Assembly (NCBI GenBank): GCA_002726235.1
Contig: PBSN01000008.1
Location: 386,635 to 450,634 of the forward strand
Direction: 5' to 3'
From: Nitrospiraceae bacterium
GTDB taxonomy: Bacteria; Nitrospirota; Nitrospiria; Nitrospirales; UBA2166
Length of the DNA stretch: 64,000 bases
The notes beneath the pieces were generated by a model. That model was given only the letters and a program-made list of their open reading frames with translations. It made no database searches and was not told the DNA's origin. Below, piece after piece: positions 4,916-27,148 of this stretch. The position numbers and the translations under genes are program-made. How positions within the stretch are numbered: position 1 is the first letter of the stretch; every line of letters begins with the position of its first letter.

Positions 4916-5593
4916 TCAAAATTGATGAGCAGGAGGCGAAAAGGAATATGAGGATTGATCGTAAACCTGAATAGCTTGAGAAGCCTCGAATAGTTTCGAC
5001 CAGACATCACTCGGATCAGGATTAAAAATAAAATTCGCATCCCCTTGCAATAGATGCCATGCACCTTGTGCCATCTCAGATGCAAGTTGACCTGGGGACC
5101 ACCCCGCATGACCTGAATAGACTCGCAGTACCCCTTCAAGTGCAGAACTGTCACGAAGCGGCTGAAGCACATCGAAACTCGTGCTCACGTAAACATCCGA
5201 AAATACGTGTTGTCCATCCTGGAGCTTCTCAGGATAGCGAAAGAGAAAAATTGGGTTTTCCATGGCAACAGGCCCACCGAAATACAACATCAAATCTACG
5301 CCCCTTAATGCAGTTACCTGTGGCAGTGCTTGAGAAAGAGAGATATCTCTGGGACGATTAATAATGACTCCGTGCGTTCCATGTTCCCCGTGATTCCACA
5401 ACAATACAACCGTCTGCCGAAAATACGGATCACTCATCGCTGAATCCGCAATGAGAAATACTCCTGGCTGAATAGAGGGATTCTCCACGCTTGGAAAGGC
5501 GTCTGCAGACACACCCTGACCAAGGAGCAAAAAAAGAGTGGCACACACGACACGACAGTACTGTTCAACATTTGCACCTCGACACATGAACAT
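4916..5593 (-). CDS. YqgE/AlgH (DUF179) family protein with an N-terminal signal-like segment
   Basis: MSDPYFRQTVVLL, GVIINRP, YFGGPV, YSGHAGWSPGQLASEM..GAW. Confidence 0.88.
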   Translation of the reverse strand: MFMCRGANVEQYCRVVCATLFLLLGQGVSADAFPSVENPSIQPGVFLIADSAMSDPYFRQTVVLLWNHGEHGTHGVIINRPRDISLSQALPQVTALRGVDLMLYFGGPVAMENPIFLFRYPEKLQDGQHVFSDVYVSTSFDVLQPLRDSSALEGVLRVYSGHAGWSPGQLASEMAQGAWHLLQGDANFIFNPDPSDVWSKLFEASQAIQVYDQSSYSFSPPAHQF

Positions 5594-6561
5594 TAATCAA
5601 TACGGACCGGCCAAGGCACATCTTTCAAGACATAAGTCGCAAGGCGTTTTGCCATCTCAATTTGCTTCCCAGTATCATTTTCGTTCAAAACATCTCTCAA
5701 CCCTTGACCAAATAGCTTATCCCTCACCAAGATAAACTGAAGCTCTTCAGCTGCCGAGACATGCCACAGACCTCGCAGGCGAAACCAAGAGAAGACGACC
5801 TGGTCAAGAAAAGTCGGTAATAGATATCGAGCACGATCTGGATGATCGGTCGCCTCTTGCATCTTCCCAAGCCAATGGTAACACTCTGCTTTCAGAGATA
5901 TTTTTTCATTAACAGAGGGGTAGGGAGGACCCTGTCGAAATCGCCGAGTAGCCACGTCTAGAATTTTCGAAGCGATCCCATCGCGCTCAAACAATACTCG
6001 CGCTTTGCGAAGAAATGAGGGAAGATGCAGTGATGTCTGAAGTTCTTCTTCAAGTCCTTTTTGGCCCCGATAGGAGATATCAATTAGCTGTCGTTTCACA
6101 CGAATCCATTGTGCGCTCTGTTCTTCACCCTTGATGATAACGAGGATGAAATGTTTTCCTCTACGCTTTGACCGAGCATCGTAGGCTGCCGCGGGCATAA
6201 TAATCCCGAGCAAATCTCCACCTCGCTTTGCTTTTATATGTCGTAGCGCTATGGGAAGAAGTTCATTAAGTTCATCGCCAAACTCGTCCGCAAGCCAGAT
6301 TGGCAAGGAAGGTTCGGGAAGTTGACTCTCACCATCAGCGATTATCGTACTCGATGTTTCCTGGGGAGATTCATGTGTTGCAGAGAGATTCATCTCATTT
6401 TGTGTAAGATCAGTTTGAATTACTGCTGATGCGTCTAAATCAACATGCGGACGGTTCACATCCACGTCATCTTTCGAAGAGGCTACATAGCCATCTGGCT
6501 GAATTACATGCGCGACTTCAGATGCTTCGGGTTGAGCACCCATCGTTTGTTCTCTATTCAT
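5593..6561 (-). CDS. Hypothetical protein; acidic low-complexity N-terminus, then a possible degenerate nucleotidyltransferase-like plus helical domain
   Basis: 322-aa ORF coupled (TAATG) to the DUF179 gene. IDISY and ARVLFERDG segments resemble NTase-fold proteins, but the GS..DxD motif is absent. Confidence 0.6.
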   Translation of the reverse strand: MNREQTMGAQPEASEVAHVIQPDGYVASSKDDVDVNRPHVDLDASAVIQTDLTQNEMNLSATHESPQETSSTIIADGESQLPEPSLPIWLADEFGDELNELLPIALRHIKAKRGGDLLGIIMPAAAYDARSKRRGKHFILVIIKGEEQSAQWIRVKRQLIDISYRGQKGLEEELQTSLHLPSFLRKARVLFERDGIASKILDVATRRFRQGPPYPSVNEKISLKAECYHWLGKMQEATDHPDRARYLLPTFLDQVVFSWFRLRGLWHVSAAEELQFILVRDKLFGQGLRDVLNENDTGKQIEMAKRLATYVLKDVPWPVRID

Positions 6562-6566
6562 TTTGG

Positions 6567-7529
6567 CTACCCCTTCGCACGATACCTTAGTATCGTGCCC
6601 TCAGCCCCAACTGCCAACCCAAAAGAAGGAGTGACAAAGTCTAGACTCCACAATGTTTTTGTTGTAGGACTTTTCCATTTCGTCCACGTTGCACCGCCAT
6701 CAACGGTATGAAGAAGACTCCCAAGCTCACCAACCGTCCATCCCTTATTCACATCGAGAAAGTCAATTCCGGTCAGTTCTATATCAATATCGCTGGGTTG
6801 AAAATTCCATCGTCGCCCAGCATCGTGGGTCACGGCAATAATTCCACCATCCCCACTTGCCCATCCGTGAGTATTATTCATAAACGACAAGTCAGTGAGG
6901 CGCATTGAAATCCCAACTGGAGAAAAGCCTATGACATTCATAGGTTCCCATGTGTTTCCGCCGTCAGCAGTATGATAAATCTCCCCTTGAACTCCACCTA
7001 TCCAACCATGAGTAGGGTTAACAAATGTGACGGCAGAAAACCATCCGACATCTGGAATATCGTGTGCAGTCCAATTTTTCCCTCCATCCGTTGTATGAAA
7101 GACCTCACTAAAGGTTCCAACAGCCCATCCGTGAAGTTCATCAAAAAAATCTACTGCAAGAAATGCATTCTTGTTGTCGTGCTTCTGAATCTCCCACGTA
7201 TCTCCTCCATCAGTCGTATGAAGAATGGTCATCATATCACCTACGACCCATCCTTTATCAGTAGTGACAAAGTCGACACTATAAAGACTTGATGAAACTC
7301 CACTTGGAAGAACAGTCCACCGATCACCCCCATCACTCGTACGTAAAATCGTCCCCGACTCTCCCACTATCCAGCTAGTTTTGTCGTCGAAAACCGACAC
7401 CCCTGCAAGATTGTATGTTGTATTACTATTCCGAGCCGTCCAGTCTTCATGCTCTCCCGGACAGCCAAGCACAAAAGCCATTGACAAAATACTCAAGGTG
7501 CATAACACCCTAGACCATGATACCTTCAT
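6567..7529 (-). CDS. YCF48/BNR-repeat (Asp-box) beta-propeller, probable lipoprotein
   Basis: Repeated GW.VG..G.I.HT.DGG..W units; VLGC lipobox-like signal. Confidence 0.85.
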   Translation of the reverse strand: MKVSWSRVLCTLSILSMAFVLGCPGEHEDWTARNSNTTYNLAGVSVFDDKTSWIVGESGTILRTSDGGDRWTVLPSGVSSSLYSVDFVTTDKGWVVGDMMTILHTTDGGDTWEIQKHDNKNAFLAVDFFDELHGWAVGTFSEVFHTTDGGKNWTAHDIPDVGWFSAVTFVNPTHGWIGGVQGEIYHTADGGNTWEPMNVIGFSPVGISMRLTDLSFMNNTHGWASGDGGIIAVTHDAGRRWNFQPSDIDIELTGIDFLDVNKGWTVGELGSLLHTVDGGATWTKWKSPTTKTLWSLDFVTPSFGLAVGAEGTILRYRAKG

Positions 7530-8509
7530 GGAATCACAACGATACCATGAGGATCTTTTCCAACGGGAATACTGGCCACAACAGTGTGTGTAGATAGCTC
7601 AATCACTTCGACAGTTTCGGTATCTCGACTCGTCACATACAATTCCTTGCCATCAGGAGAAAACACAGGAATATCAGGACGTTTTCCAACCGGGATTGTC
7701 ACAATAGGAACGCGATGCCGAACATCAATAAGTGAAACTGTGTCATCACCTCGGTTTGCAACCGCAGCAAGCTTTCCATCAGATGTTATAGCGAGACCAT
7801 GAGTATCTTTTCCAAGCGCAATCTCAGCGACAACTGTACGTGTCGCTGTATCAATCACCGACACCTGATCTTCGCCGCCTTCGGTAACCCACAGCTCTCC
7901 GCCACTCGGTGTGATGCTGATTCCCATTGCATCCTTCCCCGCAAACACATCCTGAACTGTTTGCCGTTCCCAAGTATCAATCACTGAGATATCCGCTGAA
8001 CCACCATTACTCACATAAGCGTAGTGACCATCAGGACTAAATACGGTAAGCATCGGTTTTTTTCCCACAGGTATTGTGTCAATGACTTTCTGCTCTGCCA
8101 ACGAAATAATCGAAACCGTATTTGCCCCCACATTTGCAGTGTAAAGATATTGACCATCAGGTGTTACCGAAACTCCATGTGTTTTCGTTCCAGCTGGAAT
8201 GCTTACCACTTCTCGTTTGGCTACGGTATCAAACACCACAACATTGTGACTTCCGACGTTTGCAATATACAGGTGTTTTCCGTCTAAAGATGCCACAAGA
8301 TTGTGTGGTTTCTTGCTTGAAAGTGGAATAGTGTGGGTTACCTCTTTCGTTGTGGAATCAATAACCGACAAGGAATTCGAAGCTTGATTTCCTACATAAA
8401 TTGTCGCGGCGTGGACAGGAACACTGAAACAAAGCACGGCAGACATACACATTAGCCCCAAATGGACTATCCGTTTATTTCGAAGTAGCGTCATCATGGG
8501 TACCTCCAT
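7526..8509 (-). CDS. YVTN/YncE-family seven-bladed beta-propeller, exported
   Basis: Repeats of SPDG..LYV.N..S..VSVID......TIPVG..P; signal peptide ending VHA. Confidence 0.88.
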   Translation of the reverse strand: MEVPMMTLLRNKRIVHLGLMCMSAVLCFSVPVHAATIYVGNQASNSLSVIDSTTKEVTHTIPLSSKKPHNLVASLDGKHLYIANVGSHNVVVFDTVAKREVVSIPAGTKTHGVSVTPDGQYLYTANVGANTVSIISLAEQKVIDTIPVGKKPMLTVFSPDGHYAYVSNGGSADISVIDTWERQTVQDVFAGKDAMGISITPSGGELWVTEGGEDQVSVIDTATRTVVAEIALGKDTHGLAITSDGKLAAVANRGDDTVSLIDVRHRVPIVTIPVGKRPDIPVFSPDGKELYVTSRDTETVEVIELSTHTVVASIPVGKDPHGIVVIP

Positions 8510-8933
8510 GTTGATCCGATGCCGAAAACATCGTGCGTAGGAAGTTTACAACATGCCACCGATCTTCTTCTGATAATTGCAACTGCCAGTTTGGCATGGC
8601 CCGCCGACCGACAGTGATTTTCCAGTAGAGACTGCCATCAGATTGTCGTTGTATCGCTGGATCCATGAAATTCGCCATGGCAACGCCCAAACTCAGTGAC
8701 GATGGGCCATCTCCATCACCTCGCGAACCATGACACACTTGGCAATTCTTGGCGTACACCAATATCCCACGTCCAATTGAAGCTTGTGTCGGAAGAATCG
8801 GGTTTTGACGTTGTTTGGCTTCGCCTGGAATATCCCAAGACGTTGACCGTTCGATCGCAAAAAGGGGAGTAGAGCAAAAAACAAGAAATGCAATGCTAAG
8901 GAGAAAAGCGCGACTCAAATGAATTGTTAACAC
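8475..8933 (-). CDS. Monoheme class I cytochrome c, exported
   Basis: Signal peptide, CQVCH, GDGDG, SDGSLYWKI..G..AMP (distal Met), W.VVNFLR. Confidence 0.9.
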   Translation of the reverse strand: MLTIHLSRAFLLSIAFLVFCSTPLFAIERSTSWDIPGEAKQRQNPILPTQASIGRGILVYAKNCQVCHGSRGDGDGPSSLSLGVAMANFMDPAIQRQSDGSLYWKITVGRRAMPNWQLQLSEEDRWHVVNFLRTMFSASDQHGGTHDDATSK

Positions 8934-8942
8934 GTAGCACCC

Positions 8943-9332
8943 TTACCCCTCGGTAAATCGAAGCATCGTGGATGCTTCATACGCTTTCTCGTCACTGCTG
9001 GTGAAGACGACCCTAATTTGGCCTTCCTCTGAGGCTCGAAGTTTAAATGTCACAATTGGATCATCACTAAGTGCAGCGCTCATCTCATAGGTTGACACTA
9101 ACGCGTCACGAAAAAACACTTCCATCTTGTTAATGTAAAATGCTGGCTCGCCTTTGGCAAAAACATGTTCCGCTATCATTCGAAGCCCTGTCCTAGCTGG
9201 ATGGCGCATCTTGGCCTGCACTTTTATGACTTTCCCTCTGGAAATCCGTATGGGCAACCGAATGCGAGGAGGTGCAATCAGCTGTGAAGAGGAAATTGGA
9301 TTCTGATGATGTTGCTTGTGCTGCTCTGCCAT
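8943..9332 (-). CDS. soxZ: SoxZ-like sulfur-carrier subunit
   Basis: HPARTGLR (canonical HPMETGLR), EPAFYI, SAALSDDPIVTFKL; no signal peptide; directly downstream of the SoxY-like gene. Confidence 0.7.
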   Translation of the reverse strand: MAEQHKQHHQNPISSSQLIAPPRIRLPIRISRGKVIKVQAKMRHPARTGLRMIAEHVFAKGEPAFYINKMEVFFRDALVSTYEMSAALSDDPIVTFKLRASEEGQIRVVFTSSDEKAYEASTMLRFTEG

Positions 9333-9354
9333 GTCAAACTACCCGTCGCCCAGT

Positions 9355-9867
9355 CTAACACCCACCAACGGCCACATCTATACTGTGTTCAGTGACCCAT
9401 TTTCCATGCTGATTACACTCCGCAATAACATAAACTGTAGATTCACCAGAATCAATTCGAAGTTGGGTGTACAGATACACTTCGCCATTGTCTGGAGTAA
9501 AACTAAAGGTGCCTTTCCAGATGATTGGATCATGGTAGTCAAGAATTTGCACACTGGTTATGTAATGGTCCTGTTCCATAGGATGGTCCATTGCGACGAT
9601 AATGGGGGCGTTGGCACCATCCTCAACAACATCAGGCATCCGTATCATTGGAATATGCAGCTTCTCAAAAGGAGTTAGGCTCTCTCGGTCACGAGGAAAC
9701 TGAATCAGCTCAGGCAATGTCGACGCGCTCGCCACAGGTCTGCCGAGAAACCCAGATATGCCGAACGCGCCGAGGCTCCCAAACCATGCCCAGAGCATCT
9801 CTCGCCTAGTCAAATTCTTGGCAAATCGAGCCATGGAACGCACCCCATTAAACGAATACTGCCTCAC
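9355..9867 (-). CDS. soxY: SoxY-like carrier with Tat signal and superoxide-reductase-type metal-ligand motifs
   Basis: Tat motif TRREML; PDVVEDGANAPI; C-terminal VAVGGC; also EKLHIP, HPMEQDHYI and CNQHG. Alternative start at 9834. Confidence 0.7.
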   Translation of the reverse strand: MRQYSFNGVRSMARFAKNLTRREMLWAWFGSLGAFGISGFLGRPVASASTLPELIQFPRDRESLTPFEKLHIPMIRMPDVVEDGANAPIIVAMDHPMEQDHYITSVQILDYHDPIIWKGTFSFTPDNGEVYLYTQLRIDSGESTVYVIAECNQHGKWVTEHSIDVAVGGC

Positions 9868-9898
9868 CCATTTATCTCCACAGGTACTAGTAAAATAG

Positions 9899-10729
9899 CT
9901 AGAGCTTCAGATCCCATTTGAGACTTGTTAAGTAAGCATTCACTGCATTGAGTTCATCAGAAGATAAATTGAAACTTGGCATGAAAGTCCGTGGTTTCAT
10001 TTTTTGCGGGTCGGTGAGCCAACTATCCCTCCATTCCGGTCGAATTTTACTTCCCACAAATGTCAGGTCAGGGTAGCCAAAAACACCTCTGGCATCGTCA
10101 TCCTCACCAATGGTGTGGCAGGCTCGACAATCATAGGCATCAGGGGCGGCCAGAGCCTCTCCGATTTTCTCCAACGACTTCCCTGATGAGAGAATTGTGG
10201 CCGGGTCAAAATCAACCTTCAGGGTTTCAAGAAAGGCAATCACATCCGCAACCTCTTGATCACCTGCCCAGTCAAAAACTGGCATCTGAGTCTGTGGAAA
10301 CATTTCCGTGGGATCCCAAATCCAGTTAAACAGCCACTGTTTGCTTCGCCGAGCCGTCACCTGGTTGAGTGTTGGGCCTGTCTCACCCCCAATATATTCA
10401 CCATCTTGCAAGACACTGTGGCATTGAAGACACTGCACACCATCACCCCAGTCCTTTTGGAACAATGCCTCACCGCGCTTTGCATCACCTGCTGGGATCT
10501 CTGCCAATTCTCCTCCAAGCGGACCGGCGGCCGGGGCAAAACGAACCGACGGATGCATATCATCAAACGAAACAACAACTGGCGCCGGCGGTGACGATGA
10601 AGTTGCCTCAGACGTGATTTCTTCAGAATTGGTCGCGCATCCGGCCAACAGAAAGATGCAACCAATCACTAGCGGCACATAGGTTTTCCACGATAACGAT
10701 CGCATTGTTTGCATTTTTGGAATGACCAT
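9899..10729 (-). CDS. Diheme cytochrome c lipoprotein
   Basis: Lipobox LAGC; CLQCH..GPTL..TQMP and CRACH..PDL..TFMP (two class I domains with His/Met ligation). Confidence 0.88.
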   Translation of the reverse strand: MVIPKMQTMRSLSWKTYVPLVIGCIFLLAGCATNSEEITSEATSSSPPAPVVVSFDDMHPSVRFAPAAGPLGGELAEIPAGDAKRGEALFQKDWGDGVQCLQCHSVLQDGEYIGGETGPTLNQVTARRSKQWLFNWIWDPTEMFPQTQMPVFDWAGDQEVADVIAFLETLKVDFDPATILSSGKSLEKIGEALAAPDAYDCRACHTIGEDDDARGVFGYPDLTFVGSKIRPEWRDSWLTDPQKMKPRTFMPSFNLSSDELNAVNAYLTSLKWDLKL

Positions 10730-10768: not shown

Positions 10769-12103
10769 CTACTGCTTAATGGAAATCGCACTAAAGTAAA
10801 TATCGCTACACTGGACTGGGGGACAGGGCGACAACAATCCAGTATCATGTCGTTGATCCGACCACATGACAAGAAAACGTTTTGACTCACTCACAGCAAG
10901 ACTCGGAAAAAGCTGATCTTCTGACCCTCCATCGTCATCAATCTGAACATTTTTTGTAAACGTTTTCCCTCTGTCACGACTCAGGGAGAAAAAAATATCA
11001 AAATTGTCATATCGCTTGTCCTCCCAAACCACACCAATCGTGCCATCGGAGGTAACTGCGATACTCGGATGAAACTGAAAGGCATCAGAAGAGTCATCGC
11101 TCACCTTAATGTTAAGACCAAATGATTTCCCGCCATCGACACTCTTTCCAAAATAAATATCTGGCTGGCTATTATTTCGAAGATCGTGCCAAGCAATATA
11201 TATATGACCTTTCGCATCAACTGCCAGACTTGGGTTGAATTGGTGCGTCTTCGTTTCATCATCACTGACCATCAGATTGCGACTAAATGACTCGCCGCCA
11301 TCAGTGCTTCTTGCAAAGAAAATATCCGCATTGCCTTTCCGATGATCATGCCACGCAAGAACAATCGTCCCGTCCGGACTCACAGCCAACGTTGGGTAGA
11401 GCTGCCCAGCACTGCCAAATTCGTCAGTGACCTTGACATTGCGGCGAAATGTTCGACCTCCATCCATGCTCTTTGAAAAATAGATGTCGGCCTGCGCACG
11501 TCGATAGTCTTGCCATACAACGTAAATCTCCCCTTTAGTTCCTAAAGCAACCATAGGATGTGTTTGAAACGCAGCTGGTTCAACGTATTCAGGATCTCCA
11601 AATTCATCGACTGCAGGCTCGCGGGTTTCATCATCATTCACCTTGACACTCGCAGTGAAGCCCCCAGTAACACCAAGAGAGATACTACGAGCAAAATAAA
11701 TATCCTGATCTCCATCACGTTCGTCTAGCCAAACGACGTACACATGCCCCTGCGCATCAATGGCTGAGGTTGCTCCATACAAATGAGCCTTATCTGGGAT
11801 ATCATTTACACGAACCGACGGAGCGAACGTCGCTCCATCATCTAGGCTTTGGACAGCAAAGATGTTTGATCGCCCTGCCCGCTCATCCGACCACACCGCC
11901 ACAACAAGCTGTTCATCAGTCTCAAGCTTTCGAGATACCAAGCCTCGTTGACCGGCAGACAGCGTCATTGCGGTGACCTTCCCAACGGGATAATCAGAAA
12001 TCCGCATGTTTGACTGGCCTGCTGTTTGTCCCATCCGACCACTCCCAATCCAAAGGATCACTAGTCCAAGCAGGAGAATAATGAGGAAAAAACCGCGTCG
12101 CAA
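10769..12103 (-). CDS. Asp-box (BNR, sialidase-like) beta-propeller, exported or membrane-anchored
   Basis: Seven W-x-D-x-R motifs with DI[FY]F..S.DGG.[ST]F..N..V.DD repeats; hydrophobic N-terminal helix. Confidence 0.8.
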   Translation of the reverse strand: MRRGFFLIILLLGLVILWIGSGRMGQTAGQSNMRISDYPVGKVTAMTLSAGQRGLVSRKLETDEQLVVAVWSDERAGRSNIFAVQSLDDGATFAPSVRVNDIPDKAHLYGATSAIDAQGHVYVVWLDERDGDQDIYFARSISLGVTGGFTASVKVNDDETREPAVDEFGDPEYVEPAAFQTHPMVALGTKGEIYVVWQDYRRAQADIYFSKSMDGGRTFRRNVKVTDEFGSAGQLYPTLAVSPDGTIVLAWHDHRKGNADIFFARSTDGGESFSRNLMVSDDETKTHQFNPSLAVDAKGHIYIAWHDLRNNSQPDIYFGKSVDGGKSFGLNIKVSDDSSDAFQFHPSIAVTSDGTIGVVWEDKRYDNFDIFFSLSRDRGKTFTKNVQIDDDGGSEDQLFPSLAVSESKRFLVMWSDQRHDTGLLSPCPPVQCSDIYFSAISIKQ

Positions 12104-12113
12104 TGGTGGACTA

Positions 12114-12830
12114 CTATTTCAAGCTCTCAAGATATGTCGTAATTGCTGTGATAGCATCCTCAGAGAGATTGAAGTCTGGCATAAACGTTCCCTCGATGAT
12201 ATCGTCGGGGTTCCTCAACCAGATATGCTCCCATTCCCGATAAATCTTACTCCCAACATGGGTCAGGTCGGGATACATCGCCCGACCACCTCCAGCCTCC
12301 CCTTCCCCTATTGTATGACAGGCTCGACAATCATAGGCATTGACCAACACTTCTCCTGCCGCAATGTTCGCACCCCCGTGTTGAGTGATAACAGCCGCGA
12401 CATCAGGCGGCGTTGCAGTGGACATAAGAAACGCGGCAATGTCAGCAGATTGTTGTAGGTTTTCCCATGGAAATTGCGGCATCGGCGTCTCTGGATAAAT
12501 CGATCGCGGTTCATTCACAAATTCGAAAAGATGGTCTTCCGACCTGCGCAACCCAACCTCGGTAAGAGTTGGACCGACTCTTCCACCTGCCAACAATTTA
12601 GAACCATCTGGTTGTGCTTCATACAATGCCTCATGGTCAATGATATGACAATTTACGCAAAGGCTCTTCTTATACAGTTCTACACCCTTTACGGGATCTC
12701 CAACCAGCGGTTGCTCCTCCGCAAATCCAATAGTTCCCCCTAGGAACATGCCACTCAACAATACAGCAGCCCCGACATACCATATTCCTGTCCAGCGCAT
12801 GGAATCGTGTTTCTGTTGCTTCATTGCCAC
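12114..12830 (-). CDS. Diheme cytochrome c, paralog of 9899-10729
   Basis: Signal peptide; CVNCH..GPTL..TPMP and AYDCRACHTIGE..YPDLT.VGSKI..TFMP. Confidence 0.88.
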   Translation of the reverse strand: MAMKQQKHDSMRWTGIWYVGAAVLLSGMFLGGTIGFAEEQPLVGDPVKGVELYKKSLCVNCHIIDHEALYEAQPDGSKLLAGGRVGPTLTEVGLRRSEDHLFEFVNEPRSIYPETPMPQFPWENLQQSADIAAFLMSTATPPDVAAVITQHGGANIAAGEVLVNAYDCRACHTIGEGEAGGGRAMYPDLTHVGSKIYREWEHIWLRNPDDIIEGTFMPDFNLSEDAITAITTYLESLK

Positions 12831-12921: not shown

Positions 12922-12963
12922 AAAAAAAGGGGGAGAAGATTTCTTCTCCCCCCCCCTTTTTTT
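12922..12963. terminator. Bidirectional intrinsic terminator after the three Cys-ligated cytochrome genes
   Basis: A7, GGGGGAGAAG stem, short loop, CTTCTCCCCC stem, T7. Confidence 0.75.
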
Positions 12964-12994: not shown

Positions 12995-13639
12995 TTACAT
13001 GGCACCTGCAACCGGACCAGCCGGTAGAATTTTCTTGGCACCTGGTTTCCACTTCTTCCCTTTGCTAAAAGACGAGATATAGTTCGCAAGATCGACTGAG
13101 GCCTGAGTGTTTTGATCAATCCATTGGCCTTTGTTGAACGCCGAAATGCACATATTGTTCATAGCCGGAAGGTTCACCATAAACCCACGACGCGGCCCGC
13201 GTGGCTTCGGAAAGCTTACCGCAGCGCCTTTGAGGGTCGGAATCGACAATTTCGGACGAAACACGAATCCACCGGGTTTAATGACCTCAGTTGTAGCTGC
13301 CCCACCAATTGATCCTCCACCTTCATGACAACTCGCACAACTTTGTCCGGCATTCCCATTACCAAGCGTTGGATCGTGATAGATCTTCTTGCCTCGCTCC
13401 AACGAAGCTTCCATGGTATCTGGGGCGCTATTTTGCATTGCCTTCATTAACTCAGCCACCTCTGCATCCGACAAATACGGATCCGCCATCATTCTGATAT
13501 CTATGGGCTTAGCGTTGGCTAATTTCGCTTCCATTGAATCGGCCCCAATTCCTTTACCGGCACCAGCCGTTGTACCTCCACCTGCACATGACGCGAAAGC
13601 AAACAGAGGTATGGCTAAGAGACTGATATATCGTTTCAT
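12995..13639 (-). CDS. Monoheme cytochrome c with SoxA/TsdA-type distal Cys motif, lipoprotein (paralog 3)
   Basis: Lipobox FASC; GQSCASCH; LKGAAVSFP; NLPAMNNMCISAFNKG; DLANYISSFSKG. Confidence 0.8.
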   Translation of the reverse strand: MKRYISLLAIPLFAFASCAGGGTTAGAGKGIGADSMEAKLANAKPIDIRMMADPYLSDAEVAELMKAMQNSAPDTMEASLERGKKIYHDPTLGNGNAGQSCASCHEGGGSIGGAATTEVIKPGGFVFRPKLSIPTLKGAAVSFPKPRGPRRGFMVNLPAMNNMCISAFNKGQWIDQNTQASVDLANYISSFSKGKKWKPGAKKILPAGPVAGAM

Positions 13640-13696
13640 TTCATCCTCCCATTGTCAGAGATCCTTAAGAACCTCATACCATTACCACATCTTTGC

Positions 13697-14233
13697 TTAT
13701 GGCAAGGTTGGCTTACCACCCGGCTCATACCGCTTTCCTTTGCTCAAACTGGCAACATAGGACTCAAGATCAATCGCCTGGTGAGAATTTCTGTTTAAAG
13801 GTTTCCCCTTCAAAAATGTCATCAGGCACATGTTGTTCATGCCAGCGAGGTCAGTGACGACCTTCATCGGACCTCGCACGGCCGGAAAATGCGCAGCAGC
13901 ACCCTTCAGGGTAGGAATGGCCACCTGCATGGCCTGTCCTTTCCACTTCATCTCTGTCGCACCCCCAACCGATCCACCACCTTCATGGCAACTCGCACAA
14001 CTTTGCCCAGTGGTGTTATGCCCTAGCTTTGGATCATTGAACATTTTATTACCGGCTTTAACAGAATCCTTTAATGTCACGATGTCCATGTCAGCCATGG
14101 TACCCATCCCAACCATGCCGGTTTCCGGTGACAACAACTTCATCCCCGGAAGAGACGCTGCTCCAGCATACGTAACCACCCCGAGCAATATCGCGACGCT
14201 CCCCAAAAGCAAAATAACTTTTGCCATTTTCAT
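13697..14233 (-). CDS. Monoheme cytochrome c with SoxA/TsdA-type distal Cys motif (paralog 2)
   Basis: Signal peptide; GQSCASCH; LKGAAAHFPAVR; DLAGMNNMCLMTFLKGKPL; DLESYVASLSKG. Confidence 0.8.
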   Translation of the reverse strand: MKMAKVILLLGSVAILLGVVTYAGAASLPGMKLLSPETGMVGMGTMADMDIVTLKDSVKAGNKMFNDPKLGHNTTGQSCASCHEGGGSVGGATEMKWKGQAMQVAIPTLKGAAAHFPAVRGPMKVVTDLAGMNNMCLMTFLKGKPLNRNSHQAIDLESYVASLSKGKRYEPGGKPTLP

Positions 14234-14257
14234 CGCATTCCCCCTTAGGTTGGTAGA

Positions 14258-14827
14258 TTACATCGCCCCAGGAATTGGAGTCGGGACGATCTTTTTTCCG
14301 CCAATTTTATACCGTTTTCCCTTGCTGAGAGACCCTATATAAGTCTGAAGATCGACAGCCGGCCGCATGTTTTTGTTCAACGGCAAGCCCTTCATGAAGG
14401 TCATAATGCACATGTTATTCATGTCCCCAAGATCAGCAATCCGCTTCATCGGACCACGAATAGCGGGGAAATTCACCGCAGCGCCTTTCAAGGTTGGAAT
14501 GGCAACCATCATTTTCATGCCCTTCCAATTCATTTCCGCAGCGCCGCCGACCGATCCACCACCACTATGACAGGTTGCGCAAGACTGGCCCGTCTCGTTC
14601 TTACCCAACTTGGGGTTATTGAACATCTTTTCCCCACGCATTAACGAAGCTTCAAGGGTGTCTGGCTTCATGTTCATCATCATTTCTTTCATCTTCATGA
14701 CTTTCTCTTTCGGGATATATGGGTCCGGCATTGCCCCCTTCATACCCTCGCCGGCTATCGCATACAGCGACACCCCAAAGACTGCAACCGCAATCGCGGC
14801 ACTGATCAAAACTACTTTCTTACTCAT
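14258..14827 (-). CDS. Met-rich monoheme cytochrome c with SoxA/TsdA-type distal Cys motif (paralog 1)
   Basis: Signal peptide; GQSCATCH; LKGAAVNFPAIR; DLGDMNNMCIMTFMKGLPL; GGAGGA RBS. Confidence 0.8.
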   Translation of the reverse strand: MSKKVVLISAAIAVAVFGVSLYAIAGEGMKGAMPDPYIPKEKVMKMKEMMMNMKPDTLEASLMRGEKMFNNPKLGKNETGQSCATCHSGGGSVGGAAEMNWKGMKMMVAIPTLKGAAVNFPAIRGPMKRIADLGDMNNMCIMTFMKGLPLNKNMRPAVDLQTYIGSLSKGKRYKIGGKKIVPTPIPGAM

Positions 14828-16145: not shown

Positions 16146-16982
16146 TCAGGCACCAGTGAAATCACCATCGCTACCACCAGTTGATGGTCCTTGGGATCCT
16201 AAATAAATCATCCCATTCTCAATGTCATCCTTCACTTGCTGAACCCCAAAGTACATAAATTTTGCTTCGTCAGGACATTCGCGGCACAACAATAAACTCC
16301 GTCTGTCCGTTTTATGATGTCGCTGGTCTTGCTGAATCGTCTCAAGAAATTTTGATTCATCCATCTTGATACGAAGTCCACAAAAGTCGAGTAGCCGCTG
16401 TATTTCACACATTGGATCCTGAAAATAGTCATCATAGAAGGTCACGAACATTGGAATCCCAATGCTATGCCTAAATGCGATGTCCATATACTGCTTCCAA
16501 AGGACCATGCCGGACTGAATAGACCACCCATGCCGAGTTGCAAGTGAGTGAGCAACATCCACAGGATTCCGAATCACTAACACCAGACGCAATGCACTAA
16601 CCACACGTCTCCAAAATGGTAGCGTGAGCGTCGTTCGCGGATCTTTCCATCCCCAATGCAATGCCCCACGACGCCCGTATGCCCGATGGAGGATGGCGAC
16701 GGCCTCTTCCATTAGAAGGGGTATGTCCGACGCTCTTTCCCAGCCATTCTGCCATTGAGAAGGTTTCATCCAAGTGCCTCCTTGGGAAGCCAAAAGACGA
16801 TCGTTAAGATCCATAATTTCTCGATTTTCCCAAAAACCTAAAGGATTGTCGTCTTGGGGATCTAAGAATCGTTCTGGATCACCAAGATCAAGCCCCGCAC
16901 GATTGAGAAGACGAGCCACCATTGATGTTCCACTACGATGCATTCCAATGATGCAAATCGCAGATCCAGCAAGAGGTGTCAT
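16146..16982 (-). CDS. Sulfotransferase family protein
   Basis: 5'-PSB GMHRSGTS, DNPLGFWE, WGWKDPR, 3'-PB IRNPVDVAHS. Confidence 0.88.
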   Translation of the reverse strand: MTPLAGSAICIIGMHRSGTSMVARLLNRAGLDLGDPERFLDPQDDNPLGFWENREIMDLNDRLLASQGGTWMKPSQWQNGWERASDIPLLMEEAVAILHRAYGRRGALHWGWKDPRTTLTLPFWRRVVSALRLVLVIRNPVDVAHSLATRHGWSIQSGMVLWKQYMDIAFRHSIGIPMFVTFYDDYFQDPMCEIQRLLDFCGLRIKMDESKFLETIQQDQRHHKTDRRSLLLCRECPDEAKFMYFGVQQVKDDIENGMIYLGSQGPSTGGSDGDFTGA

Positions 16983-17014
16983 ATGTCCACGGCCATGGCA
17001 GACAGAATCATCTG

Positions 17015-18334
17015 TTATCGGTTTACCTCTTCACGTGATTCGACCTTCTCCTTCACTCTCACGGAGATGTTGGTCTCCATATAAGCCAAACCGACAAAAC
17101 GCTTCGCACTGTGGACTTGAAAGACAAGAAGGTCTTTTCGCTTGTCCAACATACGAACATGGGTGCCAAGCTTCTCTGTCACACCACAGCTTAGAATATA
17201 GTTTCCTGCGTGAAACTGCGTAAGGATTGAAAAATCAATGGTCAAGACCGTACCTGCTACCTGAGGGTCTAAGGGAAAATCAGCGTTATCAGTGCTGATA
17301 CCGTATACGGCAACACCAACTGGAGTGTGGATTGCCATCCCTACACTCGGCGTTGTGATATCACGATGAAAGGAAATGGTCATTGCGATCGTAACCCAGC
17401 TCCCCCTCTGCACAGCCCGACACGGCATATTTTTGTGATCGTAAAGCTCAACCTCAAGGATCTCTGCAGCACGCGAACCAAACCTATATTCCTCTCCTTC
17501 TAAGGCTGGCTGAAACCCAACATCTTCCAAGCCACGTTCACCATCATCGAGCCAATATGCCCGAGACCCTTGTGTCAACTTCAAACGCTCGACATATTCT
17601 TCTTCCCGGCGAGACAACAACTCCCTATAGGAGTGAAAAACATTTACTGGAGGGCCTGCAGTAAGCATTGTTCCATGATCAAGTAAAATGGCTTCGTCAC
17701 ACACGGTTTGTATCACCTGCGCACTATGCGAAGCCAATACAATCGTTTTCCCATCCCTCTTCGCCTGTTCAAGACGCCGGAAACATCGCCGCTGAAACAT
17801 GCTATCACCAACTTGAAGTGCCTCGTCGAGAATGAAGATATCAGCATCAATGTTTGCCGCAATAGCAAACGCCAGTCTAATGTACATTCCAGATGAGTAG
17901 GTCTTGACCGGTTGATCAAGAAACGTACCAATTTCCGCAAAGTCCACGATCAGATCAAAGCGTTCTTCCATCTCAGCACGATCAATCCCAAGAATAGCGC
18001 CGTTAAGATACACATTGTCGCGTCCAGTAAACTCGGGATCAAACCCTGCGCCCAACGCCAACAAAGCTGCGATTCTTCCCTGAAGCTGGATTGTCCCTGT
18101 TGTAGGTTGCAGAACGCCTGCGAGGAGCTGCAGCAACGTACTTTTTCCTGCTCCGTTTTGTCCAACCAAGCCAATAATTTTGCCCCGTTCGACCTCAAAA
18201 GAAATATCGCGTAACGCCCAATACTCTTCATGATAGCTTCTGCGTCGAATGGAAAACAGTTCACGTAATCGATCCACTGGACGACGATAAAGATTGTAAG
18301 ATTTGGATAAGTTGTGCACGACAACCGTGTTCAT
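17015..18334 (-). CDS. wzt: Polysaccharide ABC exporter ATP-binding subunit with C-terminal Wzt_C domain
   Basis: Walker A GQNGAGKST, GAGFDPEFTGRDN, KTYSSGM signature, ILDEAL, C-terminal RFGS.. extension. Confidence 0.93.
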   Translation of the reverse strand: MNTVVVHNLSKSYNLYRRPVDRLRELFSIRRRSYHEEYWALRDISFEVERGKIIGLVGQNGAGKSTLLQLLAGVLQPTTGTIQLQGRIAALLALGAGFDPEFTGRDNVYLNGAILGIDRAEMEERFDLIVDFAEIGTFLDQPVKTYSSGMYIRLAFAIAANIDADIFILDEALQVGDSMFQRRCFRRLEQAKRDGKTIVLASHSAQVIQTVCDEAILLDHGTMLTAGPPVNVFHSYRELLSRREEEYVERLKLTQGSRAYWLDDGERGLEDVGFQPALEGEEYRFGSRAAEILEVELYDHKNMPCRAVQRGSWVTIAMTISFHRDITTPSVGMAIHTPVGVAVYGISTDNADFPLDPQVAGTVLTIDFSILTQFHAGNYILSCGVTEKLGTHVRMLDKRKDLLVFQVHSAKRFVGLAYMETNISVRVKEKVESREEVNR

Positions 18335-18382
18335 CCGCTTCTCTCACCACACACTGCTGCGACAATCGCAAACTGTTTAGGT

Positions 18383-19204
18383 TTATAAAACATCGGCAAA
18401 TGCGGGTTTGGATCGCATGAAAAATAGATACCCAAATGCGGCAACCATCACCATGACACACGTCAATATGAGCAATCCTGCTATGTCTGGAACAGTCCCT
18501 TCAATGATTGCAAGTCGATAACCTTTGACCAGATGGGCCATAGGATTGATCACCAACAGTATCTTCAACGATTCCGGAACTAGTTCGGCCGGATAAATGA
18601 TAGGCGTGAGAAACATCCACATCTGGGTACCCAAGCCAATCGCATGCCCTGTATCACGTACGAATACCCCAAGACATGCAATCGTCCAAGTTAATCCAAT
18701 CGTAAACAAAAGCTGAAGACACACCAACAGCGGAACAAACACGACCGTCCACGTCAATGGTGTAAAAAATACGCCGACTACACCCAGCAATAATGTAAAT
18801 CCAATCCCAAGCTGAATCATTCCGGAAAGTGATACTGATAAAGGGAGAATCTCCACCGGAAAAATGATACGCTGCACAAAATGTGCGTTTTCTCGTATCA
18901 GCGATGCTGATCGATTCAGCGCGTCGCTAAATGTAAGCCAAGGAATCATGCCACACAGAAAATACACTACAAAATCAGCACTTCGCCCTCCCCCGAAACG
19001 TACCTTAAGGATTGTCGAGAAGACAAATGTAAAGATAAGGATGATACAAAGTGGCGTGATGACCGCCCAGGTAAACCCCATTGTCGTCCCTTTGTATTTT
19101 CCAACAAAGTCTTTGCGAATAAAGTCCGCAATAAGGCTTCGCGACCGATAGAGAGAGAGCAACAATGTGAATTTAAGCACGGCACGCTTCCTGGCTCGCA
19201 TCAC
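18383..19204 (-). CDS. wzm: Polysaccharide ABC exporter permease
   Basis: KYKGTTMGFTWAVITP, FPVEILP, RDTGH, FLTPIIYP, INPMAH, FADVL. Confidence 0.93.
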   Translation of the reverse strand: MMRARKRAVLKFTLLLSLYRSRSLIADFIRKDFVGKYKGTTMGFTWAVITPLCIILIFTFVFSTILKVRFGGGRSADFVVYFLCGMIPWLTFSDALNRSASLIRENAHFVQRIIFPVEILPLSVSLSGMIQLGIGFTLLLGVVGVFFTPLTWTVVFVPLLVCLQLLFTIGLTWTIACLGVFVRDTGHAIGLGTQMWMFLTPIIYPAELVPESLKILLVINPMAHLVKGYRLAIIEGTVPDIAGLLILTCVMVMVAAFGYLFFMRSKPAFADVL

Positions 19205-19210
19205 GCTGCA

Positions 19211-20032
19211 TCACGTCTCAAAAGAATAACCGGACAAAAAATCATAGGATGCCATCTGCGCACGCACCCGCTCGATGTCGTCCTGATCCCAATCAATCTT
19301 ATGGCGACTCTTGTTTGGGGAAGAAAACACAACCTGAGAACATGCCGTCGTATAGTCGTCCGGACAATTAATCCCCAAAAACTTACACAGGGTCTGTAAC
19401 CACAAAACTGGGCGTTCAATCATTGCTTCATGAGGAATATCGAGCATGTCTTCGCTCGCCACTCGTCGCTTAATATCTGCCACTGTCTGATACAGTAGAA
19501 AATGCTCTTCAATAAGGCTTTGAAAATCTACCGTCCCGTGTCGCAAACGCTTCAAGTACTTGGTCGCGATATTATCGTAGGGGTTCCGAATGACATGGAT
19601 CAATTTCACTGGAAGAGCAATCGTTTGCTCCAACTTCCACAGAAGTTTGGGGTCATCACGCAAATGCAAGGTGGCTTGCTGCCCCTTCTTATCTCCAATC
19701 ACACGCATCGAGGTGAAGCGGCCTTGCCATTGATTGGAAACACCGTACAAATGGCCTCCCCGCGCCCTCCCGCGCTGCACACTCAACTGAGAATTGTGGA
19801 GAATTAACTCAAAGAGATGTTGTTTTCCAATGCCGTCTTGAATATATTTCATGGCATCAAGTTGATCGGCAATAATCACATTGGGATGAGCATCAAGCAA
19901 TGCCCCAATAAGTGAGTGTCCGCTTCGTGCATAGCCAACAAACATGCAGTAGGTAGCGATGTCGTCAAAGATCGTTGAACTGTCCATCCTGCCCTGGGGA
20001 GAAATCAAATGCTGTTTTGACATCACTAGCAA
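19211..20032 (-). CDS. Sulfotransferase family protein
   Basis: GYARSGHSLIGALLDAHP, IGDKK, IHVIRNPYDNIAT. Confidence 0.85.
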   Translation of the reverse strand: MLVMSKQHLISPQGRMDSSTIFDDIATYCMFVGYARSGHSLIGALLDAHPNVIIADQLDAMKYIQDGIGKQHLFELILHNSQLSVQRGRARGGHLYGVSNQWQGRFTSMRVIGDKKGQQATLHLRDDPKLLWKLEQTIALPVKLIHVIRNPYDNIATKYLKRLRHGTVDFQSLIEEHFLLYQTVADIKRRVASEDMLDIPHEAMIERPVLWLQTLCKFLGINCPDDYTTACSQVVFSSPNKSRHKIDWDQDDIERVRAQMASYDFLSGYSFET

Positions 20033-20081
20033 TCTAAAACAACATACTTCGATTGAAACATTCTACTGCCCGCCCTTACTA

Positions 20082-20936
20082 TCAATCATAGGAATATCCA
20101 TTCAAAAAACTAAACGGTTTCATCTTCTCACAAACTATCTCAATATCTTCCGGTTCCCATTCGATATCATTTCGAGTTTTGCGAGGCGCCCGAAACACAA
20201 TCTGCGAGCACTGTTCAGCATAGTCGGTCGGACACTCAATCCCCAAGAACTCACACACGGTCTGTAAACATTGAGCCGGATCTTCAATCATCAATTCATG
20301 GTAGATTTCAAGGTATTCCTCCTCACTTAACTTACCTTTCACATCAGAAACGGTTTGACATTGGGCAAAGTGTTGTTCGATGACATGCCGAAGGTTTGCT
20401 GGTCCGCGTTGCAAACGTCTGCGATACTTAGTAGCAATATTGTCATAGGGATTTCTCACAACATGAAATATCTTCAGGGGAAGTTCAATCGTCTTGCGTA
20501 GTATTTGAAGCAGCTCGGGATTTTCTCGAAGCCGCAAACTCGACTTGCCTCCCTTTTTGTCCCCAATAACACGTAAGGTCGTATATCTCCCCTGCCACTG
20601 ATCCTTGATTTCATAGCTATACCCAGTCGCTTTGCGCCCACGAAACGCGTGAGCTTTGGAATTTTCCCGCAACAGATGAAAGATCTGATATTTCGTAAAA
20701 CCCGCGTGAACATACTTAAGCACATCAAGTTCATGAGCTAGGATGACATTCGGGTGTGCATCAAGCAATGCACCAAATAAAGATGTTCCGCTTCGGGCAT
20801 AGCCGAGAAACATGCAGAATGTCTCAAGCTGCGTAAATTGAGCACGATGTTTTATCCCACCATATCCCGAAAGAAGATACCCCTTTATCAACTCTAAAAC
20901 ACTGGACCCAATGGGATTGTGGGAGAAAAGACTCAT
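20082..20936 (-). CDS. Sulfotransferase family protein, paralog of 19211-20032
   Basis: GYARSGTSLFGALLDAHP, IGDKK, HVVRNPYDNIAT. Confidence 0.85.
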   Translation of the reverse strand: MSLFSHNPIGSSVLELIKGYLLSGYGGIKHRAQFTQLETFCMFLGYARSGTSLFGALLDAHPNVILAHELDVLKYVHAGFTKYQIFHLLRENSKAHAFRGRKATGYSYEIKDQWQGRYTTLRVIGDKKGGKSSLRLRENPELLQILRKTIELPLKIFHVVRNPYDNIATKYRRRLQRGPANLRHVIEQHFAQCQTVSDVKGKLSEEEYLEIYHELMIEDPAQCLQTVCEFLGIECPTDYAEQCSQIVFRAPRKTRNDIEWEPEDIEIVCEKMKPFSFLNGYSYD

Positions 20937-21838: not shown

Positions 21839-21937
21839 TTTTTAGGTTGTTGTAATTGTGGCGCAGGGTAAGACGCAAAGACGGCCGAAGCGGAAGATAT
21901 CTTGAAATACGTAAAGATCGATCCCATAGCAACACTG

Positions 21938-22756: not shown

Positions 22757-22788
22757 TGGAAGGGCGAAATCGTGTCTCGAAGTCGTAG

Positions 22789-24195: not shown

Positions 24196-24234
24196 CTACG
24201 CAATACATTTGACCTAACCTCATATAGCGTATAG

Positions 24235-27036: not shown

Positions 27037-27148
27037 TTAAGTAACCTCACTGTGAGAATAGTCGCAACCACGGATAGTCGCAACGGTTTCCTCCTCATTC
27101 ATCAATATGCGGAAACCGAAGAAACGTCAGAATGAGATAGAAACATTT

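Follow-up and report, generated by a model that had tools for sequence, protein, structure and literature searches.

Can a SoxY-type sulfur carrier have a redox metal of its own? The question is raised by a 64,000-nucleotide stretch of contig PBSN01000008.1 from a Nitrospiraceae bacterium (the window, by which we mean this whole stretch), where a gene on the reverse strand at 9355–9867 encodes a small, soluble protein that has both the swinging-arm cysteine of SoxY and the ligand residues of superoxide reductases (SORs). We refer to this protein as SoxY*. When bacteria oxidise thiosulfate and sulfur, the central carrier is SoxYZ, which has been treated as cofactor-free; with a complete SOR-type iron site in a conserved branch, the carrier would itself contain a redox metal. 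We find, from sequence comparison, that SoxY* represents a genuine branch of the SoxY-type carriers, conserved and so far undescribed, in which a predicted metal site of the SOR type is intact and which is encoded within a compact sulfur-oxidation module.

SoxY* joins a carrier cysteine to an SOR-type ligand set

The gene and the motifs on which the analysis turns are as follows.

9355–9867, reverse strand: SoxY* gene, the SoxY/SOR hybrid (170 amino acids, from the list of open reading frames; stop codon 9355–9357)
9724–9867, reverse strand: signal peptide of the twin-arginine translocation (Tat) type, residues 1–48 (arginines 21–22 at 9802–9807)
9655–9666, reverse strand: E68-K69-L70-H71 (within EKLHIP, 68–73), counterpart of the SOR E-K-H with one extra residue, by alignment to 4brj
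9613–9636, reverse strand: PDVVEDGA, residues 78–85, SoxY-type motif at the carrier pole, matching canonical SoxY iaE(N/D)G in hhalign
9565–9585, reverse strand: H95-P-M-E-Q-D-H101 (within HPMEQDHYI, 95–103), two histidine ligand positions, aligned to SOR HPxxxxH
9406–9417, reverse strand: C151-N-Q-H154 (within CNQHG, 151–155), cysteine and fourth histidine ligand positions, aligned to SOR CNLHG
9358–9366, reverse strand: G168-G169-C170, end of the swinging arm with the carrier cysteine as last residue, from translation and DNA

The reading frame opens with GTG, just downstream of a GGAGA; an alternative start chosen by a gene caller, M12, gives a protein of 159 amino acids (P0001). The twin arginine lies in LTRREML (residues 19–25) and is followed by a hydrophobic stretch and by VASA, after which the signal peptide is likely cut. 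An RRxFL consensus is conserved across the family alignment of 25 sequences. A preliminary description of this gene, made from the DNA alone, had named a Tat signal, PDVVEDGA, EKLHIP, HPMEQDHYI, CNQHG and GGC, and all of these are present in the translation. It had also remarked that the chain stops right at the cysteine; the Cys codon (9358–9360) indeed abuts a TAG stop (9355–9357), with no GG after it.

Profile searches recovered both parentages. SoxY* scored 60.6 bits against Pfam SoxY (PF13501; cut-off 28.4) over residues 75–170 and 44.6 bits against Pfam Desulfoferrodoxin (PF01880; cut-off 22.2) over residues 67–159. Both cut-offs are passed on the same stretch of about 100 residues, and the double resemblance is beyond chance. 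When we searched chains of the PDB with phmmer, SoxY* matched the SOR of Ignicoccus hospitalis (4brj_A, E 7.8e-05) and SoxY of Thermus thermophilus (4uwq_B, E 0.0015). In the 4brj alignment, H71, H95, H101, C151 and H154 fall on the ligand letters of 'ek-htp', 'HPneaaH' and 'CnlHg', residues that in the solved SORs (H, HPxxxxH and CxxH) we take to be the iron ligands; E68 likewise aligns with an iron-site residue of solved SORs. The extra residue that the preliminary description had seen in the EKH motif appears here as a one-residue gap in the SOR chain after E-K. PDVVEDGA is without a counterpart in the SOR alignment.

Ligands and arm are conserved together

Scanning genomes, one per species, we obtained 91 relatives and retained the best 80: 61 loci of the SoxY* family (L001–L061), one partial match (L062) and 18 ordinary SORs at 25–39% identity (L063–L080). 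Residues were counted in the 60 complete relatives beyond the window, which are 36–83% identical to SoxY* (L059, cut by a contig end, was omitted). Their genomes are labelled Nitrospirota (Nitrospirales/Nitrospiraceae), Nitrospinota, SAR324, Gammaproteobacteria, Chloroflexota, Rokubacteria and Methylomirabilia, the gammaproteobacterial ones being labelled Arenicellales, Thiotrichales and 'Ca. Poriferihabitaceae'. E68, H71, H95, P96, M97, H101, C151, H154, G168, G169 and C170 were invariant in the 25 aligned homologues, which reach down to 44% identity. In the larger set, H71, H95, P96, M97, H101 and C151 were each kept in 60/60; H154 was kept in 58/60, with Asp in the other two, and E68 in 53/60, with three Gln, three Asp and one gap. 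The SoxY-type motif was also well conserved (E82 in 56/60, D83 in 58/60 and G84 in 57/60). The carrier cysteine was found in all 60, as a terminal GGC-stop in 54 and at an internal position in six fused SoxY*–SoxZ proteins. The dual Pfam match and the near-invariant ligands and arm bear out the initial view that the SoxY/SOR hybrid is real and conserved, with both feature sets under selection.

Protein databases gave a similar picture. A word-indexed search with SoxY* returned 52 candidates, including 39 clusters at E ≤ 0.001, every one of which is annotated with both Pfam families. When 1.84 billion representatives were searched in full with an HMMER profile, 730 passed E ≤ 0.001, of which 151 reached 1e-10 or better and 24 reached 1e-30 or better. 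The ligand columns were inspected in the best 150 of the HMMER matches, which form a continuum of unfused hybrids, fused hybrids of 236–306 amino acids, partial forms, canonical SoxY and Tat-signal SORs. Canonical SoxY in this set has S/H-P-M-x-x-x-D and GGCGG without the ligands, true Tat-signal SORs (P0173 and P0188) have EKHVP and CNLHGLW without SoxY features, and four matches keep the ligands and lack the cysteine arm (P0053, P0068, P0069 and P0096). In a sample of 201 genomes from the phylum of the window, the hybrid occurred in the window genome (G000), in 6/6 genomes of one family and in 3/3 of another, and in 0/191 others. In a sample of 151 genomes from the class of the gammaproteobacterium G002, it occurred in G002 only.

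SoxY* stands between SOR and canonical SoxY

To place the family, we compared profiles of the hybrid, of canonical SoxY (35 sequences, recruited with the hybrid profile) and of SOR (20 sequences) by hhalign. The hybrid aligned with canonical SoxY over 150 columns (99.9%, E 2.7e-31) and with SOR over 130 columns (99.3%, E 2.7e-20). Canonical SoxY and SOR aligned directly over 47 columns (96.8%, E 2.9e-10), centred on D(H/S)PMxxD(H/D)Y(I/V). In a quick maximum likelihood tree (93 rows by 102 columns, with ligand columns included, SOR rows poorly filled and the root assumed), canonical SoxY formed one clade (support 98 in the Shimodaira–Hasegawa-like approximate likelihood ratio test, SH-aLRT) and SOR one side (81); the ligand-bearing unfused and fused forms made up several lineages in an unresolved grade between the two. 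The evolutionary link proposed in the preliminary description fits both the hhalign E-values and this placement, and its statement that canonical SoxY is without the ligands agrees with the matches inspected, with hhalign and with the canonical SoxY of the L083 genome described below. These comparisons suggest that the SoxY and SOR families share an ancestor. The simplest reading would be that canonical SoxY is a derived branch in which the ligands were lost once, which offers a testable origin for SoxY in a periplasmic SOR-like ancestor.

SoxY* shares with canonical SoxY (Paracoccus pantotrophus 2ox5/2oxg, Thermus thermophilus 4uwq and Chlorobium 2nnc) the Tat signal, an Ig-like sandwich, the E(N/D)G motif, a C-terminal GGC with the carrier cysteine, an adjacent SoxZ and SoxB or SoxXA-type neighbours. 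Where canonical SoxY has S/H-P-M-x-x-x-D and no C-x-x-H, however, SoxY* has the full SOR ligand set; it also ends at the cysteine, with no trailing GG, and has a YVTN propeller and a cytochrome c as constant partners. With the one-iron SORs or neelaredoxins (Ignicoccus hospitalis 4bk8/4brj and Thermotoga maritima 2amu) it shares the four aligned His, the Cys and the Glu, as well as HPMxxxHYI and CNxHG, but differs in having E-K-x-H, a K/R in place of the L after CNxHG, EDGA, the GGC arm and a SoxZ partner. A third comparison concerns the TIGR04557 carriers, fused SoxYZ-like proteins associated with quinoprotein dehydrogenases and exemplified by PP_2677 of the Pseudomonas putida ped cluster, which in the accessible descriptions also combine SoxY-like and SoxZ-like parts, a GGC cysteine, a YVTN-type propeller and cytochrome c550. 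Their context is that of pyrroloquinoline quinone (PQQ) alcohol dehydrogenases and not sox genes, and the four His/Cys ligands were absent from the 8/8 true members examined (255–283 bits). The 16 fused hybrids that we scanned against TIGR04557 scored 44.7–99.4 bits, all below its cut-off of 140.

We found no paper describing the SoxY*/SOR hybrid family, in a search that left subscription-only papers and PDF supplements outside its reach. Literature pairing SoxY with superoxide reductase, desulfoferrodoxin, neelaredoxin or non-heme iron, or SoxZ with SOR terms, held nothing on a SoxY* protein. The TAT-SOR class of SORGOdb, with which SoxY* has the Tat signal in common, is defined by active site II plus that signal, and a SoxY arm goes unmentioned in the accessible part of that source (PMC3116461). 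One of the TAT-SOR members of SORGOdb may belong to the SoxY* family. A transcribed periplasmic TAT-SOR has been reported from Sulfurimonas, again with no SoxY arm mentioned in the available portion of the text (PMC10066037). A SoxY tree was rooted with 'desulfoferredoxin-family proteins' as outgroup in the legend of a supplementary figure, where no comment is attached in the part we consulted (PMC6382920), so the kinship of SoxY and desulfoferrodoxin has already been used tacitly. A paper on SoxY diversity requires the 'GGC' motif and describes arm signatures, and its accessible sections mention neither iron nor His ligands (PMC11237559); in a 2026 paper on the evolution of Sox the word 'superoxide' is absent (PMC13500833). 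Database names of family members include 'hypothetical protein', 'desulfoferrodoxin (superoxide reductase-like protein)' and 'thiosulfate oxidation carrier protein SoxY', and one automatic name is 'Desulfoferrodoxin/Sulfur oxidation protein SoxY domain-containing protein'. Standard annotation files the genes of the module as 'soxY', 'desulfoferrodoxin' or 'hypothetical'.

Predicted structure places ligands and arm at opposite poles

We built an AlphaFold2 (AF2) model of SoxY* from the 25-sequence alignment. Its best structural matches were SORs, and the predicted fold is that of an SOR. Low confidence was confined to the signal peptide and a loop at 111–120: the signal-peptide region, with a helix at 21–36, had a predicted local distance difference test score (pLDDT) below 50, and the ligand-bearing blocks scored 83–91. 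The order along the chain was H71, strand, EDGA, strand, H95/H101, strand, loop 110–119, strand, and then loop, strand, loop, strand, C151/H154, strand 155–166 and GGC. From this order and an up-and-down topology, we infer that the six ligand positions would lie in loops at one pole of the beta-sandwich, and that the EDGA motif, a DP...KG loop and the C-terminal arm would lie at the opposite pole, one full 12-residue strand away. With the ligands at the pole opposite the arm, action of the metal on sulfur bound to its own arm is unlikely. The suggestion in the preliminary description that the metal might be a catalyst for arm-bound sulfur is therefore not supported, at least for the protein's own arm.

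SoxY* is embedded in a conserved sulfur-oxidation module

Neighbours of SoxY* were counted in the 61 loci, on the same strand and within 6 kb (9 kb for SoxX-like and SoxA-like genes), with missing neighbours mostly due to contig ends. A SoxZ-like gene was found in 56 loci, a propeller in 54, a cytochrome c in 50, a SoxB-like gene in 43, a SoxX-like gene in six and a SoxA-like gene in four. The SoxZ-like gene sits downstream of SoxY* (56/61 loci), and natural SoxY*–SoxZ fusions occur six times among the loci, with further fused forms in the protein library. The genomes that contain the module are labelled SAR324, Arenicellales, Nitrospinota and marine Nitrospirota. In a SAR324 locus (L025) and a gammaproteobacterial one (L083), the order is propeller, SoxY*, SoxB-like, SoxZ*, cytochrome c. 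Upstream of the propeller in L025 are a persulfide-dioxygenase/rhodanese-type protein and YeeE/YedE sulfur-transport proteins, and after the cytochrome c come DUF302, SCO1/SenC and thioredoxin-like genes; the last three types lie downstream in SAR324 and gammaproteobacterial loci alike.

The SoxB-like protein of the module in L025 scored 418 bits against a cut-off of 550. In G001–G004 the module's SoxB-like protein was the best match to TIGR04486 (399–413 bits, again below 550), the only others scoring 112–128 bits. These four genomes also encode a canonical SoxY (107–122 bits), and in G002 canonical SoxYZ lies within 8 kb of the module. At L083 (G002:C1:3296000-3315900), the module faces a canonical soxX-Y-Z-A set in convergent orientation; that set lacks a SoxB, and the best SoxB match of the genome lies between SoxY* and SoxZ*. 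As the best SoxB match is embedded in the module in SAR324 and gammaproteobacterial genomes, sulfur-cycle inventories may be counting a different machine as 'Sox'.

In the window, the cluster on the reverse strand reads, in the order of transcription, SoxA-like trio, SoxX-like, BNR-repeat, SoxX-like lipoprotein, SoxY*, SoxZ-like, cytochrome c, YVTN propeller and Ycf48-like, the last being the final conserved gene of the Nitrospirales-type cluster. The neighbours of SoxY* are the following.

12995–14827, reverse strand: three tandem short SoxA/TsdA-like mono-haem cytochromes (214, 178 and 189 amino acids; Pfam SoxA-TsdA_cyt-c 25.8, 40.7 and 35.2 bits)
12114–12830, reverse strand: second SoxX-like di-haem cytochrome, 238 amino acids (TIGR04485 59.7 bits, just below the cut-off of 61; Pfam Cytochrom_C 58 bits)
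10769–12103, reverse strand: BNR-repeat protein, 444 amino acids (Pfam BNR_2 40.6 bits; syntenic in L001–L006)
9899–10729, reverse strand: SoxX-like di-haem cytochrome c lipoprotein, 276 amino acids (TIGR04485 88.6 bits in two stretches, cut-off 61)
8943–9332, reverse strand: SoxZ-like partner, 129 amino acids, no signal peptide (Pfam SoxZ 59.1 bits, cut-off 25)
8475–8933, reverse strand: mono-haem c-type cytochrome, 152 amino acids (Pfam Cytochrome_CBB3 46.9 bits)
7526–8509, reverse strand: seven-bladed YVTN beta-propeller with signal peptide, 327 amino acids (Pfam YNCE 87.7 bits; TIGR02276 repeat 199.6 bits)
6567–7529, reverse strand: Ycf48-like BNR propeller, 320 amino acids (Pfam PSII_BNR 195 bits; syntenic in L001–L006)

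The SoxZ-like gene expected next to SoxY* from the preliminary description thus adjoins it directly. The SoxX-like neighbour is restricted to the six Nitrospirales-type loci. Profile searches of the window genome (1.87 Mb, 90.65% complete) found no SoxB match at that completeness, no second SoxY, no other SOR-family member and no DsrA over the cut-off, and did find five genes of the sulfite-oxidase family (Oxidored_molyb). The Nitrospiraceae genome G005 likewise has the hybrid only, with no canonical SoxY. SoxX-like and SoxA-like cytochromes replace SoxB in the lineage of the window, and most lineages have the SoxB-like hydrolase. As an observation in its own right, the sulfur-gene set of the window genome is unusual for a bearer of Sox genes, in that SoxX/SoxA-like cytochromes and SoxY*Z* occur without SoxB or DsrA over the cut-off.

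What the metal site may do

We propose that SoxY* would be the SoxY-type subunit of a periplasmic SoxYZ-like carrier that has retained the Fe(His)4Cys(+Glu) ligand set of SORs. The Tat pathway would export it along with SoxZ*, which has no signal of its own, and Cys170 would carry sulfur intermediates as in Sox, with the iron at the far pole and not acting on its own arm. The predicted metal centre would be a one-electron redox site, its open position flanked by the conserved positive charges K/R69 (55/60) and K/R156 (52/60). It would reduce superoxide, or otherwise exchange electrons, via the co-encoded c-type cytochrome, and would thereby service or protect the carrier in oxic water. The Glu of SORs binds only oxidised iron. 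That the Glu and two flanking positive charges are conserved speaks less for a structural metal than for a site which, as in SOR, is redox-active and leaves a position open to an anion; the constant c-type cytochrome neighbour is a plausible electron partner. It is very probable that SoxY* is a SoxY-type carrier with an SOR-type ligand set. That the predicted site does SOR-like or electron-exchange chemistry independently of its own arm is a more tentative proposal, for which we would put the odds somewhat under even, and to the whole statement of carrier, iron site and redox role we assign a rough probability of 0.5. Taken together, the comparisons suggest that the carrier has a second, metal-based job.

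Several observations weigh against this proposal. SoxY* fell short of every NCBIfam cut-off: 44.6 bits against TIGR04488 (SoxY_true, GGCGG type; cut-off 125), 27.8 against TIGR00332 (neelaredoxin ferrous iron-binding domain; 61.9), 43.6 against the fused SoxYZ-like model TIGR04557 (140), SoxY* itself being unfused, and 38.7 against the model of AACIE-arm paralogues (172). It is consequently outside all curated equivalog families. K69 does not directly precede the His as it does in the E-K-H of SORs, given the extra residue, and position 69 is not invariant. One subclade (L010, L012 and L043, with SoxY* genes at about 8001–8480; SH-aLRT 95) represents naturally occurring variation at the metal site: Q68 is found there, G(K/R)WA is changed to G(L/M)FA, and D154 occurs in two of the three proteins. 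The arm with its GGC is retained by all three, as are the neighbouring SoxZ and cytochrome genes. In P0044, P0045 and P0056 the ligands are partly degenerate and the GGC arm is kept. Since the arm is kept in the Q68/D154 and ligand-losing forms, the metal site is dispensable for the carrier. Confidence in the AF2 model was middling for the whole chain (mean pLDDT 69.8, predicted TM-score 0.58), and the two-pole geometry was read from the order of secondary structure and not from coordinates. A periplasmic SOR cannot protect the cytoplasm. Contigs from four RNA libraries match parts of the cluster at 99% identity or more, and they carry no strand or level information, with DNA carry-over possible. 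Within the sample from the phylum of the window, Fe/Mn superoxide dismutase (SOD) occurred in 4/10 hybrid-bearing genomes versus 106/191 others, in kin that are not independent, and SOD was also lacking in hybrid-free sister families.

Our best guess at a ranking puts the independent SOR-like or electron-exchange site first, followed by a relic or structural site, catalysis in trans, docking and a plain Tat-signal SOR. If SoxY* were a divergent SoxY whose SOR-like residues are inherited scaffolding, the site might bind a metal for loop stability, or none, and would have no redox role. In canonical SoxY some of the motif, xPMxxxD(Y/V), does survive in the absence of the ligands, the arm persists in lineages that have Q68/D154 or have lost ligands, and the predicted topology would set the metal pole far from the arm. 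Yet four His/Cys positions kept in 60/60 relatives over several phyla at 36–83% identity, with Glu in 53/60 and the two flanking charges in 55/60 and 52/60, amount to conservation above what a relic would lead one to expect, and we consider this explanation unlikely. We give less weight to the idea that the iron centre of a given SoxY* works on sulfur attached to the arm of a different carrier, either a second SoxY*Z* or a canonical SoxYZ, for example by oxidising or oxygenating sulfane sulfur in place of SoxCD, or by loading sulfide. Sulfur-oxidation genes always accompany the module, as does a SoxB-like hydrolase dedicated to it, canonical SoxYZ is present as well in SAR324 and gammaproteobacterial genomes (in G002, close by), and an open position near positive charges would suit anions; the window genome, however, has neither SoxB nor a second SoxY, and to our knowledge such sulfur chemistry has no precedent at Fe(His)4Cys sites. 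Just as improbable, in our estimate, is the broader metallo-carrier version, in which the SOR-type centre would be the catalytic site of an undescribed periplasmic sulfur-oxidation module (propeller, SoxY*, SoxB, SoxZ* and cytochrome c), acting in trans on sulfur anions, whether free or bound to a carrier, for instance as an O2- or superoxide-dependent replacement of SoxCD, and in which the whole SoxY family would have arisen from a periplasmic SOR that gained a Cys arm.

Alternatively, the propeller or the cytochrome c might dock at the metal pole or exchange electrons there, with Cu or Zn perhaps bound in place of iron, which would make SoxY* a carrier and redox adaptor. The frequency of both partners (54/61 and 50/61 loci), the SCO1/SenC, DUF302 and thioredoxin-like genes that follow in SAR324 and gammaproteobacterial loci, and weak PedF and TIGR03866 matches are in keeping with this, as is the recurrence of a trio of propeller, SoxYZ-like carrier and cytochrome c550 in PQQ-dehydrogenase ped clusters, according to the accessible part of one report (PMC12997753). 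The ligands, though, are found in 0/8 true ped-type carriers, and the closest solved relatives of the propeller are non-enzymatic YVTN proteins, which leaves docking doubtful, below catalysis in trans. Least probable of all, and very much so, is that SoxY* is chiefly a periplasmic SOR of the known TAT-SOR class, the C-terminal cysteine being no sulfur carrier. Tat-signal SORs are a defined class in SORGOdb (in the part of the source available; PMC3116461), the best structural matches of our model are SORs, and the hybrid is the only SOR-family gene in 51/51 genomes. By hhalign, though, the family lies nearer to SoxY (E 2.7e-31 over 150 columns) than to SOR (2.7e-20 over 130); conservation extends to the GGC-stop, EDGA, the SoxZ-like partner and the neighbouring SoxB-like gene; and the true Tat-signal SORs P0173 and P0188, with EKHVP and CNLHGLW, have no SoxY features.

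A survey of superoxide defence was made in 51 hybrid-bearing genomes (G000–G050), which were tested for Desulfoferrodoxin and three SOD families. The hybrid was the only Desulfoferrodoxin-family match in each of them. Fe/Mn SOD was found in ten, Cu/Zn SOD in seven and Ni SOD in four, the last with a model that gave no match in any control genome; the union was 16 genomes, leaving 35 with none, a set that includes genomes recorded as 'chromosome: 1'. Among hybrid-bearing gammaproteobacterial genomes (Gammaproteobacteria, Thiotrichales, Arenicellales and Poriferihabitaceae), 3/19 had Fe/Mn SOD, compared with 110/151 in the class sample, or 108/149 once the unpublished genomes G089 and G191 are taken out. 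We rejected this anticorrelation as evidence for an SOR role, given its ambiguity within the phylum and the effect of kinship, and keep it as a lead.

Traces of the cluster in environmental libraries

DNA of the cluster was partly present in 20 of the 24 listed runs, which come from 12 studies of marine, seawater and hydrothermal-vent metagenomes. As for the RNA-library contigs, one run gave a contig inside SoxY* (9306–9572), two runs of one sample gave contigs that span the cytochrome c and SoxZ* genes (8788–9019), and the SoxA-like genes were covered in all four runs. Positions 9591–9871 and most of 6781–8185 were left uncovered, which says nothing about expression. At position 11796, inside the BNR-repeat gene, one base is missing in contigs of runs X16 and X18, both from one sample, and not in run X17, which covers the same place; the difference is either a strain variant or a contig or assembly error.

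Other features of the window

The three SoxA-like proteins share with the SoxA of a canonical cluster an invariant CxxCH and one further Cys, in MNNMC, and it is possible, judging from these residues, that their haem is His/Cys-ligated. A strong bidirectional terminator-like hairpin at 12929–12956 separates the trio from the SoxX-like gene. A promoter scan gave results at chance level (13 found, shuffled mean 13.7). The cluster is closed at 5593–6561 (reverse strand) by an open reading frame of 322 amino acids without a Pfam match, which is 51–65% identical to its counterparts in L001–L003, the three closest Nitrospirales loci.

The closest PDB match of the window's YVTN propeller was 1l0q_A (E 6.1e-51). 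Ten sequences of this propeller type conserve His at blade-equivalent spots (H69, H111, H237 and H321) together with M195, and 17 sequences of a 430-residue type from SAR324 and gammaproteobacterial loci (L025 6494–7774) keep H97, H98, H147, M238 and H361. A metal site at the propeller hub was considered and kept as a weak lead only, as the closest solved relatives are plain YVTN proteins (1l0q, YncE and the beta subunit of hydrazine synthase). Apart from the sulfur genes, positions 16146–28884 contain five sulfotransferase-family genes, an ABC transporter of the Wzm/Wzt type (17015–19204), a glucose/sorbosone-dehydrogenase-like gene (22789–24195) and an open reading frame of 933 amino acids without a Pfam match (24235–27036), and the region looks like a cluster for the export of a sulfated polysaccharide.

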